Made by a program: the position numbers and the translations under genes. A DNA stretch of 60,307 nt from an uncultured Candidatus Saccharibacteria bacterium (GTDB taxonomy: Bacteria; Patescibacteriota; WWE3; UBA101185; UBA10185), in NCBI GenBank assembly GCA_964612565.1, contig CAZTDP010000006.1:1-60307 (forward strand), in the 5' to 3' direction. Each line of letters opens with the position of its first letter. The stretch's first letter is position 1. Shown here piece by piece: positions 6,946 to 60,307 of this stretch. Under the pieces are notes generated by a model. It saw only the letters and a program-made list of their open reading frames with translations. It did not search any database and was not told where the DNA came from.

Positions 6946-7238
6946 CCGACCGCGAGCTCCAAATGCAGACCTTCATTCGGAGGGCGTCAGAGGTTCCTGG
7001 GCTCTCCGCAGAGCTTGACCAGGTGACTTGGGAGCGCGACCAGCTGCGCAAGACACTCGCCGACCGCGAGGACGCAATCAGGCGGATGCAAGAGGAGTTG
7101 AACGAGCTCAGGAACGAGAGCGACGGACTGCGCGAAGGTCTCGAGGACGTCCGTTCGCTGCGTAGAATAGATGACCTTTCCGACGTAGCCAAGGAATGCG
7201 ACTTCTACCTGTCGAGAGCACTGGAGTCCAAACCATGA
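6942..7238 (+). CDS. coiled-coil protein, short paralogue of the C-terminus of 7962..8816
   Basis: ATGA overlap with the previous gene. The stretch QMQTFIRRASEVPGLSAELDQVTWERDQLRKTLADREDAIRR... is nearly identical to residues about 190-250 of 7962..8816. Both proteins end in ALESKP. Confidence 0.65.
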   Translation: MTDRELQMQTFIRRASEVPGLSAELDQVTWERDQLRKTLADREDAIRRMQEELNELRNESDGLREGLEDVRSLRRIDDLSDVAKECDFYLSRALESKP

Positions 7239-7961: not shown

Positions 7962-8816
7962 ATGGCAAGGGATGAGACGAGGGATGTTTTTGTTCTAACC
8001 GAGGACGGCTGCCCAGAAATGTCCGACTGCTGCATCAGTGTTGTGGAGGGAACAATTCGCGACGAGGTGGCCAGCGATGGACAAGCAGAAACGCGCTACG
8101 CCCCGCACTCCGACTTGGTCGACCTCGAGCGCCAATTTGCCGAGGTAAAAGCAGAGCGTGACTACTGGCGCAAGAAACACCAAGAAGACAACGAGGGTTT
8201 GGTGTTTCATCTCGGTAGAAACCTTGAGTTTGCCCAAGAAGTAGCATTCAGACATGGCGCTACAGAACCGCATCCGACAATCAAGTGCATCCAAATCATC
8301 GATAAGCATGCGGAGTCGCTGCGGCACCAACTCGCCAACCGCGACGCAACGATAGAAGCTCAGCGAAGCATGTTGGCCGGGTCTGTCGATAGCGCATTTG
8401 GGCTGCAACCGGTAATGACGCACGAGGAACTCTGCCTAACGGTTGAGCGGGAGACGAGTGACAGGAAACGGGAATACGCGAACGAGCTGACAAGGCTGCA
8501 GGGCCATATCGCAGAGCGCGACAACCAAATGCAGGCCTTCATTCGGAAGGCGTCAGAGGTTCCTGGGCTCTCCGCAACGCTCGACCAGGTGACTTGGGAG
8601 CGCGACCAGCTGCGCAAGACACTCGCCGACCGCGAGGACGCAATCAGGAAGCTGCAGGAGGCGATGAATGAGCTCAGAAGCGAGAGCGACTCCATGTGCG
8701 CGCTGCTGGTCCGCGTCGTGAAGTACTCGACGGAAGACGAGGTGAAGTCGAGACGTGCAACTAGGTTCGAGCGCTTGCTCGATGAAATCACCAGAGCACT
8801 GGAGTCAAAACCATGA
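7962..8816 (+). CDS. coiled-coil protein (284 aa)
   Basis: ORF track; ATG directly follows the previous TAA. The C-terminal third is paralogous to 6942..7238. Confidence 0.65.
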   Translation: MARDETRDVFVLTEDGCPEMSDCCISVVEGTIRDEVASDGQAETRYAPHSDLVDLERQFAEVKAERDYWRKKHQEDNEGLVFHLGRNLEFAQEVAFRHGATEPHPTIKCIQIIDKHAESLRHQLANRDATIEAQRSMLAGSVDSAFGLQPVMTHEELCLTVERETSDRKREYANELTRLQGHIAERDNQMQAFIRKASEVPGLSATLDQVTWERDQLRKTLADREDAIRKLQEAMNELRSESDSMCALLVRVVKYSTEDEVKSRRATRFERLLDEITRALESKP

Positions 8817-9220
8817 AATGCATCACCGTGCGCTACCCGTGGCCGTGGGCAATGTTCGAGTTGCCCGAAGAGCTCGCGAAAGACGTCGAGAACCGTTCGA
8901 GGAACAGTAGCTATCGAGGACCGCTCGCGATCCACGTGAGCCTGTTCCACAAGTGGCACGACATTGAGACGGATTTGACGATTGTGGCTTTGCGTGCGCC
9001 AGGAATCGCGATGCCGACGCGCAAGCGTCTAGAATGCTCGCTCGGGTGCATCGTTGGAATGGTCGATGTCGTTGACTGCGTGCAGGACAGTCCGTCGCGG
9101 TGGGCCAACCCTGGGATGTGGCACCGCGTGCTCCGGAACCGTCGAAAGGTGCGCCCGGTTCCAATCATCGGGCGGCTCGGACTCTTTGATTGTCAGGTCG
9201 AGTTGGAGGTTGTGCCGTGA
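8813..9220 (+). CDS. ASCH-domain protein, copy 1
   Basis: ATGA overlap with the previous gene. MKCITVRYPWPWAMF..E..AKDVENRS....YRGPLAIHVS ... GCIVGMVDVVDC is typical of the ASCH/PUA-like fold. Paralogue of 10411..10818. Confidence 0.65.
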   Translation: MKCITVRYPWPWAMFELPEELAKDVENRSRNSSYRGPLAIHVSLFHKWHDIETDLTIVALRAPGIAMPTRKRLECSLGCIVGMVDVVDCVQDSPSRWANPGMWHRVLRNRRKVRPVPIIGRLGLFDCQVELEVVP

Positions 9221-9864
9221 CGCCAATGTCTTCCATGGGCGACGCGTCGCCAGGCCGGTTGCGTCCCGTGACCGCCAAGGTCGCCGCCCTCTTCGTCCAG
9301 ACGAACGGAGTCTACTTCGGTCTTCCTGGTGTCGATCCATGGGACGAGCAGCGCAACGCCAAGCGCTACCGCGGCCGAAGTCCGGTAGTCGCTCACCCGC
9401 CGTGCAACCGTTGGTGCAGGCACGCCTACCTAGTCCAGGCCGTCCACTGGTATCGCGTTGGCGAAGATGGTGGGCTGTTCGCGTTTGCCTTACGGGCACT
9501 CCGTCGTTGCGGTGGCGTGCTTGAGCATCCGGCGTGGTCGTTGGCTTGGGCAGCGCACGGGCTGATTGTTCCAGCCAAGCGCGGTTGGTCTCGCTGCATC
9601 GATGGGACCTGGGTATGCGAGGTGGCGCAGGCCGCCTACGGGCATCGGGCGCAGAAACTGACCTGGTTGGCGTACGTCGGGCGCAACCCTCCGCAACCGC
9701 TCGACTGGTCGCGCCCCCAAGCCGACGCCGTCGTGAGCGGGCTCCGTAACAACTGCGGTCGTCCGCTCTCGCAACGGGTCTGGCCAGCGGAAGCGTCACG
9801 CACTCCGGAGCGGTTCCGCGACGCGCTGATCCAGTTGTCGCGGACCTGCGGAGGTGCTCCGTGA
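9217..9864 (+). CDS. compact cytosine-C5-methyltransferase-like protein, paralogue A
   Basis: GTG 9217 (GTGA overlap) or ATG 9226. Motifs VVAHPPCNRW, GGVLEHPAWS, VAQAAYGHRAQKLTWL and EASRTPERFRDALI have the order and spacing of C5-MTase motifs IV, VI, VIII and X. No clear FxGxG motif or target-recognition domain. Paralogue of 56847..57545. Confidence 0.45.
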   Translation: MTPMSSMGDASPGRLRPVTAKVAALFVQTNGVYFGLPGVDPWDEQRNAKRYRGRSPVVAHPPCNRWCRHAYLVQAVHWYRVGEDGGLFAFALRALRRCGGVLEHPAWSLAWAAHGLIVPAKRGWSRCIDGTWVCEVAQAAYGHRAQKLTWLAYVGRNPPQPLDWSRPQADAVVSGLRNNCGRPLSQRVWPAEASRTPERFRDALIQLSRTCGGAP

Positions 9865-10073
9865 AAGACAACTGTTGCAAGGTCGCATGCTTTGCGATTG
9901 ACAGATTCGAACCGGTCTTCGACCGGAAGAACCGTCTAGTCGGTGAGCTGCGCTTTCCTGAAGGTGCCGCGGTGTGCGGTGGGCCGCTCTGCGTCGTCGA
10001 TTGGTGCGTTGAACGCCCGGGCGCGCGACGCGTGATCGAGGATGCTTGCAGGATGCGCGGAGGTTTACCGTGA
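9861..10073 (+). CDS. small Cys-rich protein (70 aa)
   Basis: GTG 9861 forms a GTGA overlap. Eight Cys residues (NCCKVAC ... CGGPLCVVDWC ... C). Confidence 0.5.
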   Translation: MKDNCCKVACFAIDRFEPVFDRKNRLVGELRFPEGAAVCGGPLCVVDWCVERPGARRVIEDACRMRGGLP

Positions 10074-10414
10074 TGATTCCAAACCTGACCAAGATCATTG
10101 GCATGTCCGAGCCGCATCTACGCCGTCCAATACCCGGAGACTGGAATCAAGCATCCTTCAACGGGTGGCGCTTTTGGTTCATTCACAAGGGTGGACTTCG
10201 AGCGATGCTCAGCACGGACACGCTAGACAATGGATCTACGTGGCTTCACCTATCGATAAGCCACGAGAACCGTCTTCCAACATGGGACGAGCTGAAGATG
10301 GCAAAGGACGCTTTCATCGGTCGCAACCATGAGGCGGTGCAAGTCCTTCCGAAGGACGAGGATTTCGTGAACCTGCACAAGTTCTGTCTGCATCTGTGGA
10401 GTCCAGAGCCATGA
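10073..10414 (+). CDS. conserved phage protein, function unknown
   Basis: ATG 10073 shares one nt with the previous TGA (GTG 10070 is also possible). STWLHLSISHENRLPTWDEL...F.G...AVQVLP......VN...CLHLW is a pattern I recall from many prophages. Confidence 0.6.
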   Translation: MIPNLTKIIGMSEPHLRRPIPGDWNQASFNGWRFWFIHKGGLRAMLSTDTLDNGSTWLHLSISHENRLPTWDELKMAKDAFIGRNHEAVQVLPKDEDFVNLHKFCLHLWSPEP

Positions 10415-10818
10415 AGTGCCTCACCGTCCGCTCGCCGTGGCCGTGGGCAATGTTCGAGTTGCCCGAAGAGCTCGCGAAAGACGTCGAGAACCGTTCGCGT
10501 CGTTGCAACTACCGCGGGCCACTCGCGATCCACGTCAGCAGGTTCCACAGGTGGCACGAGATCGGTGCCGATTTGTCGATAGTGTCGCTGCGAGCTCCCG
10601 GAATCGTGATGCCATCGCGGCAGATGCTCGAGGCGTCGCTCGGGTGCATCGTCGGCATTGTCGACGTCGTGGACTGCGTGCAGGACAGCCTGTCGCGATG
10701 GGCGATCCCTGGAAAGTGGCATCTCGTGCTCCGGAACCGTCGCAAGGTGCGGCCGGTGCCGATTCTCGGTCGAGAGTCGATGTTTGAGTGTCCTGTGGAG
10801 TTGGAGGTTACTGCGTGA
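10411..10818 (+). CDS. ASCH-domain protein, copy 2
   Basis: ATGA overlap with the previous gene. Colinear with 8813..9220, and shares a 63-nt perfectly identical block (10435-10497 = 8837-8899). Confidence 0.65.
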   Translation: MKCLTVRSPWPWAMFELPEELAKDVENRSRRCNYRGPLAIHVSRFHRWHEIGADLSIVSLRAPGIVMPSRQMLEASLGCIVGIVDVVDCVQDSLSRWAIPGKWHLVLRNRRKVRPVPILGRESMFECPVELEVTA

Positions 10819-11018
10819 CCGACTGGCAACGTGTCGCCTATGGAATGGCAGATGTCGCTCGAGAGCGCGAGATCGCGGAGGCGACACTCCGGAACCGGCG
10901 CGCTGCTCTTGGGTGCCGCGTCGAATGCGCGGAATGCAAGGTCTACATGTGCCCGAGCCACGCCCTCTATCTATTCGCTACCGCGATCAACGAGCCGCCG
11001 AAGGAGCCGGTGAAGTGA
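10815..11018 (+). CDS. hypothetical small protein (67 aa)
   Basis: GTG 10815 forms a GTGA overlap. Contains CRVECAECKVYMC. Confidence 0.45.
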   Translation: MTDWQRVAYGMADVAREREIAEATLRNRRAALGCRVECAECKVYMCPSHALYLFATAINEPPKEPVK

Positions 11019-11168
11019 TCGTCGAGCAACCAAGAGCACCGCGCCACAAGCGACCTGACCATTGAGCTCGTTACGCCAGGAGGAGAGAAACGAGTGGTTT
11101 CGGCGGAGGGGAGTGGCTGTAAATCCGCCACTTTCCGAAAATCGACCATCCACCTCAAAATAGTCCTG

Positions 11169-11244
11169 GCGTACCGGTACGCGATAGTCCATGCTGTCTC
11201 TTGTCAGCCGGCGATGACGCCTGGCAGACAGAGGAGAGATTCCG
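11169..11244 (+). promoter_or_regulatory. conserved leader, copy 1: 14-bp palindrome, hairpin and RBS
   Basis: Perfect palindrome GCGTACCGGTACGC (11169-11182) is followed by GATAGT. An imperfect hairpin at 11194-11231 (CTGTCT...AGACAG with inner GGCG-ATGA-CGCC) abuts the RBS GAGGAGAGA. Identical base for base to 12609-12684. Confidence 0.6.
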
Positions 11245-11547
11245 ATGACCAAATCAATCAACGTATCCAGCCGCATCGCCTCAACCCGAGTCTCGGACCG
11301 CATCGTTGTCGACAGCTACACCGGCGAATGGCAAGCGGCGCTGTGCCCGCGCAGACTTCCGTCGGTCGGTGACGTGGTTGCGCTGGCCGAAGACGCTGAC
11401 GCGAGAGAGTTTCACGACTTCTCGTCAGCGCTCTCAGAGGCCGGACTGGTTGTTCGCATGGGCTCATCACTCGACCGCGACAAGCGCAACCTCGGCGTCG
11501 TGACTGAGCGGCCCAAGAGCTACGACGGAGAGCTGATCATCTGGTAG
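11245..11547 (+). CDS. hypothetical 100-aa protein, paralogue 1
   Basis: ORF track. About 88 percent aa identity to 12685..12987. The first 61 nt of the coding sequence are identical between copies. Confidence 0.7.
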   Translation: MTKSINVSSRIASTRVSDRIVVDSYTGEWQAALCPRRLPSVGDVVALAEDADAREFHDFSSALSEAGLVVRMGSSLDRDKRNLGVVTERPKSYDGELIIW

Positions 11548-11555
11548 TCGATCAG

Positions 11556-11597
11556 CCCAAGCCTCGCCCCGGTAGGCTTCGAGCCCCGGGGCTTGGG
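11556..11597 (+). terminator. GC-rich hairpin after paralogue 1 (possible terminator, no U-tract)
   Basis: CCCAAGCC (11556-11563) pairs with GGCTTGGG (11590-11597). There is inner CCCCGG/CCGGGG pairing as well. Confidence 0.35.
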
Positions 11598-11642
11598 GCG
11601 TTGAGAGCCGCCGAGGTGGCTGGCTCAAGAAGGAGAGATTCC

Positions 11643-11912
11643 GTGGAAATTTCAAAAGAGCTCGAGGCTGGCATCGCTCGTTTTGCGTCCGCAATTGCGC
11701 CGATAGTTGGCGAGACGGTTGCGGTCACTATGCGCGACGGATCTGTACGTGTCGGCAAGCTGTCACACGACACGCCGTGCCAACCGATCGTCACTACCGA
11801 CGAGGGCAAACGATACGCTGTCCCTACCAGCGAGATAGCCAAGCTGTTCGCCGAGCACCCAACTGAGTCCGGCGCTGAGTGGCTGGCTCTGTACGAGCAG
11901 GGGCAACGGTGA
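11643..11912 (+). CDS. small protein with Sm/LSm-like motif
   Basis: GTG 11643 is preceded by AAGGAGAGATTCC, the same initiation context as the 100-aa paralogues. GETVAVTMRDGSVRVGKLSHD....IVTTDEGKRYAVPTSEIAKL resembles Sm1/Sm2 spacing. Confidence 0.4.
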   Translation: MEISKELEAGIARFASAIAPIVGETVAVTMRDGSVRVGKLSHDTPCQPIVTTDEGKRYAVPTSEIAKLFAEHPTESGAEWLALYEQGQR

Positions 11913-12409
11913 CACTAGCCACTCTATCCCCCCGCGAACTCGAGGCCCGGATCGCGGGGGATCCAGTTGCATCACGTCGTCTGCTCCGGTACCTGGACGA
12001 CCTGGGATTTTGCATCCGCCGCCCGACGACGTTGGCGTTTGCCGCGCTCTGCTGGGGCGAGCCAGGCTGGTCAGAGTCCGAGGCCAAAACCGCGTCGAAA
12101 CGGTGGCGAGACGCCCGCGCGACGGGTGAGCTCTCGACGGCGGCGAGACGGCTGATTGTCGCGGTGTGCTGGCCGCTGGTACCCACTGAGGTAGAGTACC
12201 GCAAAACCACGCACAACGGGCCACTGCGCCGCGCCCTGCTCGAGGTCGACGAGGGATGGAGACTAAGCAACGTGGCACGCGTCGCCGACCACGCTGGGAG
12301 CCTGCGCCACTACTCCGACGGGTGGGAGTTCGGCGACAAAACCTACGACCGCCGCGAGGACGCGGAGCGAAACCTGACTGCCAATGGCTGGGAGAAATGG
12401 GAACCGTGA
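11909..12409 (+). CDS. hypothetical protein (166 aa)
   Basis: GTG 11909 forms a GTGA overlap; in frame within track ORF 11879..12409. Confidence 0.5.
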   Translation: MTLATLSPRELEARIAGDPVASRRLLRYLDDLGFCIRRPTTLAFAALCWGEPGWSESEAKTASKRWRDARATGELSTAARRLIVAVCWPLVPTEVEYRKTTHNGPLRRALLEVDEGWRLSNVARVADHAGSLRHYSDGWEFGDKTYDRREDAERNLTANGWEKWEP

Positions 12410-12603
12410 GAAACAGGACCAGAGCAGAGCGCGCAGCCGCCGGGATAGTCGACCTGTCCGTTTCGATTCGCTCCGAGCTGCGAGACGCGATTGACACCGA
12501 GGCGGCCGCGCAAGGGCTGTCGAGGGCGGGGCTGATTGCCAAGTGGGCGCAAAGTATCGATAAAAAGCGCGTCAGGAAAAATCGACAGGGCGACGCTAAA
12601 TAG
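12406..12603 (+). CDS. ribbon-helix-helix (CopG/Arc-like) DNA-binding protein
   Basis: GTG 12406 forms a GTGA overlap. VDLSVSIRSELRDAIDTEAAAQGLSRAGLIAKW fits the beta-strand, helix, helix pattern of RHH repressors. The stop lies 5 nt before palindrome copy 2. Confidence 0.5.
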   Translation: MRNRTRAERAAAGIVDLSVSIRSELRDAIDTEAAAQGLSRAGLIAKWAQSIDKKRVRKNRQGDAK

Positions 12604-12608
12604 GCGTT

Positions 12609-12684
12609 GCGTACCGGTACGCGATAGTCCATGCTGTCTCTTGTCAGCCGGCGATGACGCCTGGCAGACAGAGGAGAGATTCCG
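12609..12684 (+). promoter_or_regulatory. conserved leader, copy 2: palindrome, hairpin and RBS
   Basis: Identical to 11169-11244, at an offset of exactly 1440 nt. Confidence 0.6.
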
Positions 12685-12987
12685 ATGACCAAATCAATCA
12701 ACGTATCCAGCCGCATCGCCTCAACCCGAGTCTCGGACCGCATCGCGGTCGATAGCTACACTGGTGAATGGCAAGAGGCGATGTGCCCGCGCAAGCTCCC
12801 AGCTGTTGGCGATGTGGTTGCGCTAGCTGAGGATGCCGACGCGAGAGAGTTCCACGATTTCTCGAGCGCTCTCTCGGAGGCTGGGCTTGTCGTCCGTATG
12901 GGATCGTCACTCGACCGCGAAAAGCGCAGCCTCGGCGTCGTGACGGAGCGACCCAAGAGTGACGACGGAGAGCTGATCATCTGGTAG
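12685..12987 (+). CDS. hypothetical 100-aa protein, paralogue 2
   Basis: ORF track. Last gene of the + arm, convergent with the lysis block. Confidence 0.7.
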   Translation: MTKSINVSSRIASTRVSDRIAVDSYTGEWQEAMCPRKLPAVGDVVALAEDADAREFHDFSSALSEAGLVVRMGSSLDREKRSLGVVTERPKSDDGELIIW

Positions 12988-13052
12988 CCACCACAAGACA
13001 AGTCCCGCCCCGGTAGGTCGACTACTTGGGGCTAGCCAACAAAACGGCAAAA

Positions 13053-13076
13053 CGCCCCAGGCCGTGACCTGGGGCG
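13053..13076 (-). terminator. intrinsic terminator of the leftward late/lysis operon
   Basis: Perfect 9-bp stem CGCCCCAGG / CCTGGGGCG with a 6-nt loop. On the - strand it is followed by TTTTGCCGTTTTG. Lies between the convergent genes 12987 and 13103. Confidence 0.7.
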
Positions 13077-13102
13077 AACTGTCCGGGAATTCCGGATGGT
13101 TG

Positions 13103-13543
13103 CTACTTCGCTGCAGCCTTCGCCGGTCGCCATACCTCGGCCGCGACGTAGGCGCCGGCCGCGACGAAGATGGCAATCAGCAGCACCGCGGTGGGACCTC
13201 GCCACGAAACTGGGCCAGCCTTGAGCGACGGCCAATTGCGCGGCGTGGTTTGCTCGATGTCGCGTCCGGAGCGTGTTGCGGAGGCCACCTGCAGCCCGGA
13301 CTTGATCTCGTGTCTCAGGCTGTCCTTGAGCTCGGAGAGCAGTGCCGGGATTTGCCCGACTCCACCCTCGAGTCGAGCGAGCGCCATCCGTGTCTCAGCG
13401 GAGTCGACCTGCAGCGCCGTCACGTCGTCCCTCGCCTCGTCGAGTAGGAGAGCCAGGCGCGAGATAGCCGGACACGAATGGCACTCTTTGCGGGTGCCTG
13501 GAAGCGTCTTGGAGAGCGTGTCACGCATGCGGTCATTGCCCAT
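13103..13543 (-). CDS. coiled-coil protein with C-terminal transmembrane anchor (lysis-associated?)
   Basis: ATG 13543 (MGNDRMRDTL...) within track ORF 13103..13609. The C-terminus AVLLIAIFVAAGAYVAAEVW is hydrophobic. Last gene of the lysis block. Confidence 0.5.
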   Translation of the reverse strand: MGNDRMRDTLSKTLPGTRKECHSCPAISRLALLLDEARDDVTALQVDSAETRMALARLEGGVGQIPALLSELKDSLRHEIKSGLQVASATRSGRDIEQTTPRNWPSLKAGPVSWRGPTAVLLIAIFVAAGAYVAAEVWRPAKAAAK

Positions 13544-13679
13544 CCTCGCCCCCCACGTCGTCAGTCGGCGGAGGTGCCGGGATTGTCTGTTGGTCTTCGT
13601 AGTGCGCAAGGCGCGCGCGGAGGGCGGCGTTTTCCTGCTCGAGGCGGTCGGCTAGCGCTCGGAGGGAGACGGCGTCCAT
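13533..13679 (-). CDS. small ORF (48 aa), below the ORF-track size cutoff
   Basis: ATG 13679-13677 shares one nt with the endolysin TAA. Reads MDAVSLRALADRLEQENAALRARLAHYEDQQTIPAPPPTDDVGGEDGQ. Its stop overlaps the next ATG by 8 nt. Coupling on both sides supports it as a real gene. Confidence 0.4.
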   Translation of the reverse strand: MDAVSLRALADRLEQENAALRARLAHYEDQQTIPAPPPTDDVGGEDGQ

Positions 13680-14383
13680 TAGGCAACGACCTCCGCGAAG
13701 TCGCTACCGGCGGACGTCTCAACGAGTTCCGCTAGGTCGAACTGCATCCCCGGCACCGCGCGGATCAATCGCTCCCACTCGAGATCAACGAAAGGCGTAG
13801 GCTCTTCGCTTCGGATGCGCGCAAGCATCTCCTTGTGGAGGGCTACCACGCCGCGCGCGTATAGCGCCTCGTCGGCTGTGAAATACCCGGCCACCTTGAG
13901 AGCGCGCACGTAGCCGAGCGCGTCTCCGACGAGGAGCTTTGCCCACGCTGCCTTGTAGCGCCCCCCGGCGACGAAATCGACGTAGGAGTCGGCTCCATCG
14001 TACTCGTTCGCGTAGGCCCGCATGCGCGTCTGCGGATGACCGTCTGGCACTGGCAATGGAGCACCAACCAGCTTCCCGCCATTCGAAGGCGCCGCGCTCA
14101 GCTGCCCTTCGGGAGCGAACCACACGATCTTCCCGTTGAGCACTTCGTTGAGCGTGATGCAGGTGAACATTCCGGAGTACTCGGATCCCGCTTTGATGTT
14201 GCCCCAGTTCGCCTGCCAGATTTGCGTCCAGCGACCGGTCTCGAGGGCTGTCTTCGCCAGCGCAAGCGCGACAACTTCGTCGGTGAGATGGTCAACGCGC
14301 GACTTGAGCGCCCACTTCATCGCGTGCAGCGCTTGGGCGAAGGTCAGCGGTGTGCGTTTTGGTTCTACGTAGACGGCTCGCAT
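13679..14383 (-). CDS. endolysin, GH73-like N-acetylglucosaminidase
   Basis: LAKTALETGRW...NWGNIKA ... MRAYANEYDGADSYVDFV..GRY..AW...L.......YV.AL..AGYFTADEALY matches the glucosaminidase (FlgJ/GH73) block order. Confidence 0.7.
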   Translation of the reverse strand: MRAVYVEPKRTPLTFAQALHAMKWALKSRVDHLTDEVVALALAKTALETGRWTQIWQANWGNIKAGSEYSGMFTCITLNEVLNGKIVWFAPEGQLSAAPSNGGKLVGAPLPVPDGHPQTRMRAYANEYDGADSYVDFVAGGRYKAAWAKLLVGDALGYVRALKVAGYFTADEALYARGVVALHKEMLARIRSEEPTPFVDLEWERLIRAVPGMQFDLAELVETSAGSDFAEVVA

Positions 14384-56850: not shown

Positions 56851-57545
56851 AGGGACACCTCCGCCCCGCAGTCGTCGCAGTTCCTTGCTAGCAAAATCAG
56901 CGCGTCGCGAAACTCAACAGGTGTCCTCGATGCTTCCTTCGCCCAAACCCGTTGTGATAGCGGCCTACCGCAGTTGTTTCGCATGCCGCTGACAACCCCT
57001 TCGCCGCGCGGTCTATCCCACCTCATTGGTGCCGGAGGATTGTTACCGACGTAGTAAAGCCACGTCGCTTTAGTTGCGCGGTGGCCGTAGGCGCTTTGTG
57101 CGACCTCGCACACCCAGCCGTTGCCACCTGGCCAGACATCGCAAGTAACCTTCGTCCAACCACAAAGGTCTGGAGCGATCAGATCGTGGGCGGCCCATGC
57201 CATTGACCAAGCTGGGTGCTCGAGCACTCCTCCGAATTCGCGAACAGCTGCGAGAGCAGACGAGAAGCAGCCACCGTCATCGCCGACGCGTAGATGCGGG
57301 TGCCTTGACGCGACCAACTTCGCGAGCCTGCACCAGCGCGCGCATGGTGGGTGCGCCACGACCGGATTGGGGCCGGAGTAGAGACGTGCGTCGCGCGCCT
57401 CATCCCATGTGTCAACGCCAGTGAGACCGAAATACGCGCCGTTGGTCTGGACGTAGAGAGCCGCGATTGGTCTGCGCGCGGCCGCCCTACAGTCGTCACA
57501 GAGCTCCGGGCGGTCGTCGGCCGCGCCTAGGACTACTTCGAGCAT
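56847..57545 (-). CDS. compact cytosine-C5-methyltransferase-like protein, paralogue B
   Basis: ATG 57545. Motifs VVAHPPCARW, GGVLEHPAWS, VAQSAYGHRATKATWLY and EASRTPVEFRDALI. Colinear with 9217..9864 on the other strand. Confidence 0.45.
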   Translation of the reverse strand: MLEVVLGAADDRPELCDDCRAAARRPIAALYVQTNGAYFGLTGVDTWDEARDARLYSGPNPVVAHPPCARWCRLAKLVASRHPHLRVGDDGGCFSSALAAVREFGGVLEHPAWSMAWAAHDLIAPDLCGWTKVTCDVWPGGNGWVCEVAQSAYGHRATKATWLYYVGNNPPAPMRWDRPRGEGVVSGMRNNCGRPLSQRVWAKEASRTPVEFRDALILLARNCDDCGAEVSL

Positions 57546-57817: not shown

Positions 57818-58582
57818 TCACCACTCCACGTCAACCAATTCGCCGTAAGTGACCACGACGCGCTTCGGTTTCTCAAGCACGATCACGTGACCTGGTATCA
57901 CCCAGAGAGCGAATGCGGACTCAGCAAACGAGGCGAACGCCTCTAGTCGAGCGCGCTCGTCGTCGCCCACTGTCACGATCCCGGCTCGGATCGGGGCAAC
58001 GTAGAACGCGATCCACGTGGAGGCCCAGAGCGAGTCCCTGAGCGAGTCCCTGAGCGAGGCCCAGAGCGAGGCACAGAGCGAGTCACTGAGCGAGGCACAG
58101 AGCGAGTCACTGAGCGAGTCCCTGAGCGAGGCCCTGAGCGAGGCCCAGAGCGAGTCACTGAGCGAGGCCCTGAGCGAGGCCCAGAGCGAGGCCCAGAGCG
58201 AGTCCCTGAGCGAGGCCCTGAGCGAGTCACTGAGCGAGGCCCAGAGCGAGTCACTGAGCGAGTCACAGAGCGAGGCACAGAGCGAGTCCCTGAGCGAGTC
58301 CCTGAGCGAGGCCCAGAGCGAGTCACTGAGCGAGGCCCTGAGCGAGTCACTGAGCGAGTCACTGAGCGAGGCCCAGAGCGAGTCCCTGAGCGAGGTGGCC
58401 TCTTGCAACGTCGCCACAAAGTGCACCTCATACTGAACGAGAGCTGGGGCGACGATCACTGCTACGGCCTCCGCAGCCTTCTCTCGGTCTGTCTCGGTCG
58501 ATGTTGCAGCGCGGAACATTTGCTCCCGCGTCGCGGTCACAATTGCCTGCTGTTCTTCCGTTAGTGAATCAATCTTTGCCAT
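57818..58582 (-). CDS. tetrapeptide-repeat protein (about 31 x S-L-x-[DA])
   Basis: ATG 58582 ([12 protein letters not shown]...). The central 125 aa are [20 protein letters not shown] ... units, flanked by non-repeat N- and C-terminal domains. Confidence 0.65.
58031..58395. repeat. 12-nt tandem repeat array, about 31 units
   Basis: Unit GAGCGAG[GT]C[AC]C[TA]G on the + strand. All three reading frames on each strand stay open across it. Confidence 0.95.
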
Positions 58583-58598
58583 AATCACTCCACACTGT

Positions 58599-58640
58599 TC
58601 ACCCGCGCCAGGTGACCTTGATGTTGTTGTCTGCTGCCAT
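58599..58640 (-). CDS. possible 13-codon upstream ORF (MAADNNIKVTWRG)
   Basis: ATG 58640 lies 8 nt after GGTAGGAGGATAGG. The stop is 16 nt before the ATG of the repeat protein. Confidence 0.25.
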   Translation of the reverse strand: MAADNNIKVTWRG

Positions 58641-58660
58641 TGACCTATCCTCCTACCCGT

Positions 58661-58690
58661 GAGAAATCCCACACTGAACGTGTGTGGGGC
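58661..58690 (-). terminator. intrinsic terminator after the XRE / winged-helix gene pair
   Basis: The - strand reads CCCACAC-acgttca-GTGTGGG followed by ATTTCTC. Confidence 0.5.
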
Positions 58691-58765
58691 TTGCGCTTTC
58701 CGAAATCGTGTCGACGTTGCGACGCATGACGAGAGGACAGCGCCACTACCGGCACGCAAGAAGAG

Positions 58766-58999
58766 CTACTGCGTGCGCTTGTGCGCAGTCCAGATTTCGA
58801 CGCCTTGCGCGTTCTCGACACGAGACACGGCTCCGCGTTGTTCCATTGAGCCGAGCGCTCCGCCAACGTAGTCGAGCGTGAGAGCGCACTCGTGCACGAG
58901 TCCTGTCGCCGATGTTGGTCCGCTGCTGATTAGACGACGCCAGATGCGCTCGCACACGCGTCCGCGTTGCTCCTGGGTGAGTGAGGTCCAGGGCGTCAC
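58766..58999 (-). CDS. small winged-helix-like protein (77 aa)
   Basis: GTG 58999 forms a GTGA overlap with the XRE stop. ...ATGLVHECALTLDYVGGALGSMEQRGAVSRVEN..GVEIW. Confidence 0.45.
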   Translation of the reverse strand: MTPWTSLTQEQRGRVCERIWRRLISSGPTSATGLVHECALTLDYVGGALGSMEQRGAVSRVENAQGVEIWTAHKRTQ

Positions 59000-59337
59000 G
59001 CTGCGCCCTGCTCGCTGTCGGTAGATGGGACCGACGGGAGGACTGCGGCGACTACTCCGTGGGGGGTGGATTGTGCTGGATCTGCAGTATCTTGCGTGTC
59101 CGCAACGCACCCATCACCTTCCGATGCTTGTGCATTTTCGCCCTCTACCCAGTCACTCACAGACGGTGACCCACCGGTCACCTTTGCGAGCTTGGTTGCC
59201 GTACCAAGCTGAGGCTTCGACTTCCCTTGTTCGAGGCGATTGATCGTAGAAGGCTCTACGTCAACCATTCTAGCTAGTTCCGACTGCGTGATCCCCTCAC
59301 GCGCCCTGAACGCAACCAACATTTCGTTAGGTCCCAT
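58996..59337 (-). CDS. XRE-family HTH transcriptional regulator (Cro/CI-type)
   Basis: ATG 59337. MLVAFRAREGITQSELARMVDVEPSTINRLEQGKSKPQLGTATKLAKV is a classic HTH_3 pattern. No SD before the ATG. Confidence 0.7.
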   Translation of the reverse strand: MGPNEMLVAFRAREGITQSELARMVDVEPSTINRLEQGKSKPQLGTATKLAKVTGGSPSVSDWVEGENAQASEGDGCVADTQDTADPAQSTPHGVVAAVLPSVPSTDSEQGAA

Positions 59338-59347
59338 ACGAGAGGTG

Positions 59348-59376
59348 TTTATGCGCCGACGCAAAACAACGCGCAA
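59348..59376 (-). promoter_or_regulatory. candidate promoter of the XRE gene (near-leaderless)
   Basis: On the - strand: TTGCGC (59376-59371), a 17-nt spacer, then CATAAA (59353-59348). Only 10 nt separate the -10 element from the ATG. Confidence 0.35.
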
Positions 59377-59496
59377 GGAAAATCGTGCGTACGCGCAAAA
59401 CGAACTCTGGCAGGCGAACGGCAGGCATGTAAGGCGCTGTCGTTTTTTGTGCCACCTGTTTTGCGTGGGCGCACGAAAGACGTTGCGCGCGCGCAA
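59352..59496. promoter_or_regulatory. four TGCG-N4-CGCA operator-like sites
   Basis: Sites at 59352-59363, 59386-59397, 59462-59473 and 59484-59495. The last lies inside the perfect 14-bp palindrome TTGCGCGCGCGCAA (59483-59496). All sit in the divergent intergenic region. Confidence 0.45.
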
Positions 59497-59949: not shown

Positions 59950-60307
59950 GGTTGTGCGGTGGGACACCGGAGAGACTATCCACGAGCACGACGGGGAAAT
60001 TCGTGCCACCGTGGAGGCAGCGGCGAAGCTCGGGATATCGTGTTTCAGAGCCAGCCTCGACGGAGCCATCCTCGACGGAGCCAGCCTCGTCGGAGCCCGC
60101 CTCGACGGAGCCATCCTCGACGGAGCCAGCCTCGTCGGAGCCCGCCTCGACGGAGCCCGCCTCGACGGAGCCCGCCTCGACGGAGCCAGCCTCGACGGAG
60201 CCAGCCTCGTCAGAGCCCGCCTCGACGGAGCCAGCCTCGTCGGAGCCAGCCTCGACGGAGCCATCCTCGACGGAGCCAGCCTCGTCGGAGCCCGCCTCGA
60301 CGGAGCC
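59942..60307 (+). CDS. pentapeptide-repeat protein, N-terminal part (runs off the window end)
   Basis: ATG 59942 overlaps the previous stop (ATGGCTAA). A 36-aa leader is followed by at least 17 A-x-L-x-G units with no stop before nt 60307. Confidence 0.75.
60050..60307. repeat. 15-nt tandem coding repeat (pentapeptide array)
   Basis: Unit GCC-(AGC/CGC/ATC)-CTC-(GAC/GTC)-GGA. The same unit occupies nt 3-52. Confidence 0.95.

Follow-up and report, generated by a model that had tools for sequence, protein, structure and literature searches.

Why should two genes that differ over most of their length begin with exactly the same DNA? The question is raised by a 60,307-nucleotide (nt) stretch of contig CAZTDP010000006.1 (hereafter the window), a phage-like genome of 60.3 kb with a G+C content of 61-62%. 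A gene for a 100-amino acid (aa) protein occurs in it twice on the + strand, on either side of three other small genes, the last of which encodes a predicted ribbon-helix-helix (RHH) protein. The initial annotation, made from the sequence alone, had noticed a common block at the start of both genes and proposed a self-contained regulated cassette with a palindrome-binding RHH repressor and an RNA-level control element. The reading that we favour, with a probability of about 0.6, is that the locus carries two copies of a portable promoter-operator-leader-cargo cassette that would be controlled by the adjacent RHH protein, and that the identical block is a recent recombination patch.

The two 100-aa genes and their common block

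A comparison at an offset of 1440 nt gave 0 mismatches between positions 11169-11305 and 12609-12745, confirming the 137-nt identity that had been reported. The block extends to codon 20 plus 1 nt of the 100-aa gene, copy 1 of which occupies 11245-11547 (+) and copy 2, defined by its open reading frame (ORF) and by comparison with copy 1, 12685-12987 (+). In the remainder (11306-11547 and 12746-12987), 42 of the 242 aligned positions differ, in agreement with the hand estimate of about 40 in some 240 nt, mostly at third codon positions; 4, 5 and 33 of them fall on the first, second and third positions, respectively, and 8 amino acids are changed. For codons 22-100 the NG86 method gave a synonymous divergence (dS) of 0.94, a nonsynonymous divergence (dN) of 0.053 and an omega of 0.057, thus both copies are old and under strong purifying selection. 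The two genes are old, separately maintained paralogues of an uncharacterised family. The first 20 codons, with 15.7 synonymous sites, would be expected to carry about 8 changes and carry 0, and a perfect run of 137 nt was never reached when mismatch positions were permuted (P<5e-5). Weaker homology continues beyond the block, upstream to about 11138 and past the stop codon to about 11576 and 13017. Everything that had been described inside the block is present: the palindrome, the hexamer GATAGT (11183-11188) and a hairpin (11202-11230) that ends 2 nt before GGAGAG.

A conserved promoter-operator-leader module

Relatives were collected from the contigs carrying homologues of the RHH protein (about twenty) and of the 100-aa protein (three close homologues among 5.8 billion clusters), giving ten related metagenomic contig groups with 12 module sites. 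All 12 sites can be aligned with a shift of no more than 1 nt over the approximately 33 nt from the palindrome to TGTSAG, and the bases between differ. The module starts at the Lys-stop end of an RHH gene (AAATAG or AAATAA), followed within 2-6 nt by the palindrome core (G)CGTACCGGTACG, which overlaps the -35-like hexamer TTGCGT. A -10-like hexamer of the pattern CAnnnT/TATACy (CATGCT, CAGACT, CACTAT, CATATT, CAATCT, CATTGT, TATACT or TATACC) stands 16-17 nt after the -35-like one. The sequence TGTCAGC follows 5-6 nt later, always as the 5' arm of a hairpin (TGTCAGC...GCTGACA), and then come a ribosome-binding site (RBS) and a small gene, here called the cargo.

In the window, the copy adjoining the RHH gene (P2) consists of the -35-like hexamer TTGCGT (12607-12612, +), the perfect 14-base pair (bp) palindrome GCGTACCGGTACGC as predicted operator O2 (12609-12622), the -10-like hexamer CATGCT (12630-12635, +) and a 5' hairpin (12642-12670, +), as defined by the 12-site alignment and by comparison of the two copies. 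The upstream copy (P1) has TGGCGT (11167-11172, +) as its putative -35 hexamer, in constant register with the -10-like hexamer over the 12 sites, the same palindrome as predicted operator O1 (11169-11182), CATGCT at the position kept in all sites (11190-11195, +) and the hairpin TGTCAGCC...GGCAGACA (11202-11230, +), identical to that of P2 and beginning at the predicted transcription start. The ribosome-binding context GAGGAGAGATTCCG follows at 11231-11244 (+). The palindrome GCGTACCGGTACGC occurs only at these two places in the window. The initiation context GGAGAGATTCCG has exact copies at 11233, 11632 and 12673, so its recurrence before the gene that follows copy 1 (11632-11643) holds; the degenerate copy claimed at about 11068-11090 is a weak resemblance only.

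The GATAGT hexamer, which the initial annotation had singled out, is not conserved across leader types and was ruled out as a -10 box; the conserved -10-like hexamer is found 7 nt downstream of it. In P1 of the related contig L001 this hexamer is changed from CATGCT to CAGACT, that is, positions 1, 2 and 6 are kept and the inner ones changed, as expected of a -10 element. The 7-bp stem of the 5' hairpin is 95% paired over nine leaders, with 2 compensatory pairs, a value reached by 8 of 500 shuffles, and pairing falls to 17-46% when the partner is slid by 1-3 columns. The 5' untranslated region folded from the predicted start has a free energy of -17.9 kcal/mol (z -3.9). Two other candidate elements were rejected: the palindrome as an intrinsic terminator, since it folds weakly as RNA (-7.7 kcal/mol, z -0.85) and lacks a U-tract, and the inverted repeat 11069-11081/11164-11176 as an auxiliary half-operator, since it is not conserved in L001.

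The RHH protein and its link to the palindrome

The gene at 12406-12603 (+) encodes a 65-aa protein, the candidate repressor, which matches Pfam RHH_10 with E=1.4e-3, below the gathering score. Its assignment to the ribbon-helix-helix (CopG/Arc/MetJ) superfamily is supported at the level of the family: RHH_5 was matched by 8 of 10 members, RHH_10 by 6 of 10 and RHH_1 by 5 of 10, with a best E of 4.8e-6. The family has an invariant GLSRAG turn and an IVDLSVSI stretch, compatible with the strand-helix-turn-helix pattern (G-x-S/T turn), and the best, weak PDB matches of its profile are the mycobacterial RHH antitoxins Rv0298, MazE6 and MazE7 (E 0.17-0.55).

The stop codon of the gene is at 12601-12603, 5 nt before palindrome 2, as had been noted. 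The same arrangement, an RHH stop codon with the palindrome within 2-6 nt, is found in 10 contig groups whatever gene lies downstream. The module adjoins RHH homologues of 52-97% identity, with at least seven unrelated cargo genes and with differing upstream genes. In L228, a divergent RHH protein with a different beta-strand region is accompanied by GCGTGCCGGCACGC, in which both half-sites are changed and the dyad is kept. The adjacency in 10 groups and the symmetric variant make the link strong, and the palindrome is probably bound by the neighbouring RHH protein, as the initial annotation had supposed.

In L001, P1 with the window-type leader and the 100-aa gene is followed by an unrelated 68-aa gene, a homologue of the approximately 166-aa gene (called as 150 aa) and the RHH gene, after which the palindrome recurs, now with another leader and another gene. 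In L002 the RHH gene and the palindrome are followed by the second leader type of L001 and a homologue of the 100-aa gene of 66% identity. L216 has an RHH protein 97% identical to that of the window, the palindrome, the window-type leader and an unrelated 51-aa gene, the identity ending at ATGACCAA. The other groups (L217, L219, L221, L222-L227, L228 and L229) combine RHH homologues of 52-73% identity with further leaders and cargo genes, and the palindrome of L217 is the variant GCGTTCCGGTACG. In L218 and L220 the palindrome and the P2 cassette are absent and the RHH gene runs straight into the conserved convergent terminator.

The approximately 166-aa gene is split in L216, its C-terminal part (9714-10013) lying just upstream of the RHH gene and its N-terminal part (11804-12199), which has 84.5% identity to window 11910-12192, 1.6 kb downstream and beyond the cargo slot; this points to a rearrangement around the RHH-operator module. 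The 14-mer was also seen in an unrelated low-GC phage, L015 (IMGVR_UViG_2828901765_000004), at 1793-1806 and 2214-2227, within TTTTGCGTACCGGTACGCAAA sites that lie 421 nt apart on either side of a small gene and seem to form an independent operator pair of a different regulator.

Origin of the upstream copy and proposed regulation

P1 is preceded at 11138-11168 (+) by a non-coding vestige of an RHH 3' tail (GAAAATCGAC...AAATAG), which aligns to the RHH coding tail at 12578-12608 and to the RHH tails of relatives. The vestige is present upstream of P1 in L001 too, and the same stretch may in addition serve as an A-rich UP-like region. P1 thus arose by duplication of the RHH-proximal module, covers about 11138-11576 and was inserted, in the window and in L001, ahead of three genes ending with the RHH gene.

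A linker of two stem-loops (11552-11604 and 11605-11626, +; -46.6 kcal/mol, z -1.9) follows the 100-aa gene of P1. It has no U-tract, precedes the RBS of the next gene and may act as a partial terminator or stabiliser. The linker together with GGAGAGATTCCG is found in the window (11552-11643), L001 (467-552) and L216 (10538-10625) with 84-88% identity and different flanking genes, and is, as judged from this comparison, a second portable non-coding module of the lineage.

On the favoured reading, the canonical copy P2 would begin inside the 3' tail of the RHH gene and act as a weak sigma-A/70-like promoter (-35 TTGCGT, 17 nt, -10 CATGCT). With a start of transcription near 11202 or 12642, the palindrome would cover about -34 to -21, which is a repressor position, and the transcript would begin with the stable hairpin (TGTCAGC...), followed by the RBS and the small cargo gene. 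The host RNA polymerase would fire the promoter upon infection. The RHH protein, produced from the long early transcript, would then bind the palindrome as a dimer or tetramer and occlude the -35 box and the spacer, and thus the cargo might be expressed as an early pulse.

Why the block is identical

The 137-nt block is most likely a gene-conversion or recombination patch lying over what appear to be a functional promoter, operator and leader. On the left the block begins with the first base of the palindrome common to both copies, and on the right it stops inside shared coding sequence; since it ends in pre-existing homology, it looks like a conversion tract seeded there. Phage paralogues and relatives are well known to show gene conversion and short-patch mosaicism, and the locus resembles such cases in its perfect tracts of 60-150 nt that lie inside 80-92% identical sequence and end in existing homology. 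It differs in having three paralogue pairs in one 7-kb stretch, each with a patch, and is otherwise not unusual.

The two other pairs lie in the same arm. One comprises 8813-9220 and 10396-10818, encoding PHROG 3193-type proteins of 135 and 140 aa with 80% identity, and the other 6948-7124 and 8514-8690, a coiled-coil segment with 90% identity. The members of each are about 1.6 kb apart, and with the 100-aa pair they make three bracketing duplications within 7 kb. Their coding sequences contain perfect runs of 63 nt (8837-8899) and 66 nt (7017-7082), respectively. Similar tracts are shared with relatives: between the window and L218, a perfect run of 137 nt lies in the coding sequence of the approximately 166-aa protein (12140-12276; P=2e-4), and between the window and L216 a run of 148 nt extends from the RHH gene, of which it takes in the 3' half, through the palindrome and leader; for the 5' half of this gene, dS is 1.55.

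The invariance had been taken as the mark of a special leader, which is not borne out. Other leaders are quite different, ordinary coding sequence has perfect patches too, of 63-148 nt, and in L001 substitutions affect 6 of 76 nt of the leader as compared with 33 of 242 nt of the 3' coding sequence (Fisher p=0.23). In a related phage the leader has thus diverged largely as the coding sequence has, a behaviour that the initial annotation itself had tied to a recent gene-conversion patch. The six substitutions are at inner -10 positions, in the hairpin loop, at the bulge and at the top pair, all of them non-critical. As perfect identities between diverged paralogues are often recombination patches here, invariance alone is no evidence of a functional RNA or DNA element.

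Alternative explanations

The first alternative is that the block is held identical by selection, the leader and 20 codons forming a regulatory RNA that is structured or bound by protein. Such an RNA might be a translational operator for the RHH or the 89-aa protein, or a target of antisense or small RNA. This alternative could draw on the 5' hairpin, which is kept in sequence and structure across leader types, on the 83 nt at 11223-11305 (61 nt of them coding) that are the same in both copies and in L001, against a divergence of 13-17% in the remainder of the gene, and on the binding of Aca proteins to hairpins just past the transcription start (PMC13551039). Against it, the 151-nt leader with the 5' coding sequence folds no better than shuffles (z 0.00), and Rfam covariance models gave no match at E<=1 on either strand of 10900-13200. 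The leader has six substitutions in L001 and, in L216, 2 indels; the homologues P0002 and P0003 differ in their N-terminal coding sequence, P0002 having a different leader as well; and comparable perfect patches are found in ordinary coding sequence. The antisense ORFs from 11303 and 12743, considered as a dual-coding constraint, were rejected, as their profile of G+C content at the three codon positions (GC1/2/3) is flat and they are broken in L001, and the assignment of the 89-aa protein as Sm-like is unsupported. Selection for an RNA element is therefore an unlikely cause of the identity. Of the RNA-level control proposed earlier, the conserved 7-bp hairpin stands, and neither a known RNA family nor an unusually stable leader as a whole was found.

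The opposite alternative, which we hold to be quite improbable, is that the block is purely a recombination artefact without dedicated regulation, the palindrome being homology for shuffling or a weak 3' RNA hairpin of the early transcript rather than an RHH operator. The breakpoints between leader types fall exactly at the palindrome edges, perfect patches are pervasive, 14-bp palindromes are not rare in the window and the L228 variant would preserve RNA pairing, all of which suits this explanation. However, the hairpin that the palindrome could form is weak and without a U-tract, as given above, and GCGTTCCGGTACG in L217 breaks the closing pair of its 5-bp stem while the module is still kept. 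The spacing between the palindrome, the -10-like hexamer and the hairpin is constant to within 1 nt in 12 otherwise divergent sites, which points to DNA geometry, and the module is strictly linked to one RHH family even where the genes on both sides differ.

A type II toxin-antitoxin pair of the RHH protein and the 100-aa protein, to which the antitoxins among the best PDB matches (E 0.17-0.55) might have pointed, is rejected as very improbable, because between the two genes lies a leader of 81 nt that has a promoter-like module of its own, the downstream gene is unrelated in nearly every relative and absent in L218, the palindrome lies downstream of the RHH gene and not upstream of the operon, and the 100-aa protein matches no toxin family.

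Several observations weigh against the RHH-controlled cassette with a recombination patch. Perfect 14-bp palindromes are not rare in the window (7 against 5.6 in shuffles), so that the significance of GCGTACCGGTACGC comes from the comparison of relatives, and the symmetric variant GCGTGCCGGCACGC of L228 would preserve an RNA hairpin equally well. Both hexamers agree poorly with the Escherichia coli consensus (3/6 each), and a consensus promoter scan of 10000-13700 called no promoter. In L218 and L220, whose RHH proteins share the N-terminal half and have a different C-terminal tail, no palindrome was found downstream of the RHH gene; their contigs are too short to cover a possible P1-type site upstream. 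The first 61 nt of the coding sequence are the same in copy 1, copy 2 and L001, a comparison of three sequences (0/61 against 33/242, p=8e-4), and this identity calls for either a second patch or some constraint, at the level of nucleotides, on the region of translation initiation. These 61 nt encode a lineage-specific N-terminal extension outside the core of about 75 aa and are A-rich, with rare codons. Promoter activity, transcription start, RHH binding, repression and timing are all predictions from the DNA.

The same caution applies to the loop at P1. There, the RHH protein would repress its own supply, as in acr-aca operons, if transcription passes the linker hairpins. No palindrome was found upstream of the RHH gene within 5-10 kb in L216, L217 and L222; autoregulation is therefore not a general feature, the ancestral logic being that the RHH protein controls the next promoter. 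The autoregulatory loop at P1 is, to judge by these relatives, derived and belongs to the lineage of the window and L001. The claim of a self-contained regulated cassette at the end of the early arm is supported.

Proteins of the cassette

The family of the 100-aa protein is defined by a core of about 75 aa (residues 20-90) with the motif IDxYTGxWQxAL...DAREWDDF...AGL. A profile search among 1.84 billion representatives gave 47 matches, some of which are C-terminal domains of proteins of 177-288 aa. No sequence match to the 100-aa protein was found in Pfam, PHROG or PDB, and its AlphaFold2 model (predicted local distance difference test, pLDDT, 83) had no Foldseek match better than E 0.09 in PDB or BFVD. 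The first gene between the two copies, an 89-aa ORF with a GTG start (11643-11912, +), occupies a variable slot, filled in L001 by the unrelated 68-aa gene. The earlier Sm-like label for it could not be retained, as Pfam SM-ATX was matched with E=0.079 (13.6 bits against a cut-off of 29.8); the best PDB match was unrelated (E=1.5), and there was none in PHROG. The second is the ORF of approximately 166 aa (11909-12409, +), the start of which overlaps the previous stop and which has homologues in L001, L216, L218 and L220. Among the cargo proteins of the window and its relatives there was no match to a Pfam or PHROG family and no recognised anti-defence gene.

Genome setting and searches for relatives

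The window encodes a Mu-type portal, a baseplate-J protein, an SNF2 helicase and a Dam methylase, as well as the recombination genes for an AAA_23 ATPase and a PD-(D/E)XK/DUF2800 nuclease, which are in keeping with a recombination patch. The + strand carries the genes between about 250 and 13,000, and the - strand those from 13,100 on, which places the cassette at the distal end of the + strand (early) arm. Between the convergent arms lie a stem-loop (13007-13032) and a strong terminator-like hairpin (13053-13076); the region 13007-13076 (-43.7 kcal/mol, z -4.7) is conserved in L218 and L220, and lysis-type genes lie beyond the second hairpin, opposite the cassette.

The proteins of the window have NCBI records. 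Megablast and blastn searches of 50,697 phage records with the cassette region and with the first 25 kb gave zero matches, and all matches of the portal protein were below 30% identity. A scan of IMG/VR with the bare 14-mer palindrome gave chance matches only, protein-guided searches for loci of the 100-aa and RHH families in IMG/VR, JGI metagenomes and GTDB genomes found none, and a longer DNA pattern of the module had no match in genomes or IMG/VR. In the metagenome collection the sole match of the DNA-pattern scan was L221, with an RHH gene directly upstream, as predicted.

Several other repeats were observed in the window. A 15-nt tandem repeat (GAGCCAGCCTCGACG-like) runs from 59988 to 60307 and resumes at 1-70, so the record looks circularly permuted or terminally redundant. 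An array of about 40 copies of a 12-nt unit (57936-58466) lies within a - strand ORF (57818-58759). An inverted similarity of 570 nt with 66% identity between 9281-9830 (+) and 56896-57466 (-) makes a 224-aa ORF of the + arm the distant paralogue of a 325-aa ORF that lies, on the opposite strand, at the other end of the genome. The perfect 14-bp palindromes ACTCGTGCACGAGT and TTGCGCGCGCGCAA (58888-58901 and 59483-59496) flank an HTH_3 (Cro/CI-type) gene (58996-59496) and are candidate operators of this regulator. A 20-nt inverted repeat with 90% complementarity (10897-10916/11026-11045) surrounds the 3' end of a 76-aa gene (10788-11018) just upstream of P1 and could be an RNA structure or a terminator ending the long early operon.

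Comparison with known systems

The closest known architecture is that of Aca14 (WP_005725436.1) within operons of the acr-aca type, a likeness of layout. Aca14, an RHH regulator of Pasteurella multocida, represses its own and the next operon via similar inverted repeats in both promoters, and Aca1 and Aca2 bind hairpins just downstream of the transcription start (PMC13551039). In a comparable manner, a small RHH gene of the window ends an operon of small variable accessory genes, the same palindrome is found in the putative promoters of its own operon (P1) and of the next gene (P2), and a conserved hairpin lies just past the predicted transcription start. In contrast to Aca14, the operator has a high G+C content and lies over the -35 box and the spacer, not over the -10 box, and in most relatives the RHH gene belongs to a long early operon with the operator only at the downstream promoter. 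In contrast to acr-aca operons, no known anti-defence gene is, as judged by Pfam and PHROG families, among the genes associated with the cassette, and the phage is high-GC.

The classical RHH transcriptional repressors are CopG of plasmid pMV158 and Arc and Mnt of phage P22; CopG and Arc are encoded downstream of the promoter that they repress, and Mnt is divergent from its target. The cassette shares with them an RHH protein within the range of about 45-80 aa and a short (pseudo)palindromic operator over the core promoter, with steric exclusion of RNA polymerase expected. It differs in that the canonical target promoter would begin in the 3' coding tail of the regulator, and the profile similarity is weak and sub-threshold. 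Phage morons are reportedly, according to Hendrix and colleagues, promoter-gene-terminator units inserted between conserved genes. The cargo resembles them in having its own promoter-like module and a terminator-like hairpin, both predicted, and in being present, absent or swapped between conserved flanks, with L218 and L220 keeping the RHH gene and the convergent terminator and lacking the P2 cassette. Unlike in morons, the slot is physically joined to an operator and to a regulator gene of its own, and a single genome contains two copies of the cassette.

Taken in this way, the cassette belongs to a known kind of phage regulation, of which it is a clear if fairly ordinary case. A bolder interpretation, offered only tentatively, is that the RHH gene with its fused operator-promoter might serve a previously undescribed lineage of high-GC myovirus-like phages as a hot-swap slot in which genes for counter-defence or host takeover are exchanged. 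The 3' tail of the RHH gene would then double as the upstream part of the promoter, the promoter-cargo unit would duplicate and move, as at P1, and recombination at the module would drive the exchange of cargo, the 100-aa protein being a new anti-defence or takeover effector in two diverged copies.

The pairing of the 65-aa RHH protein with GCGTACCGGTACGC as regulator and operator is a concrete and testable prediction in a phage lineage without close cultured relatives. The signature of promoter, operator and 5' hairpin may serve as a bait for variable accessory genes, as aca genes serve for anti-CRISPRs.

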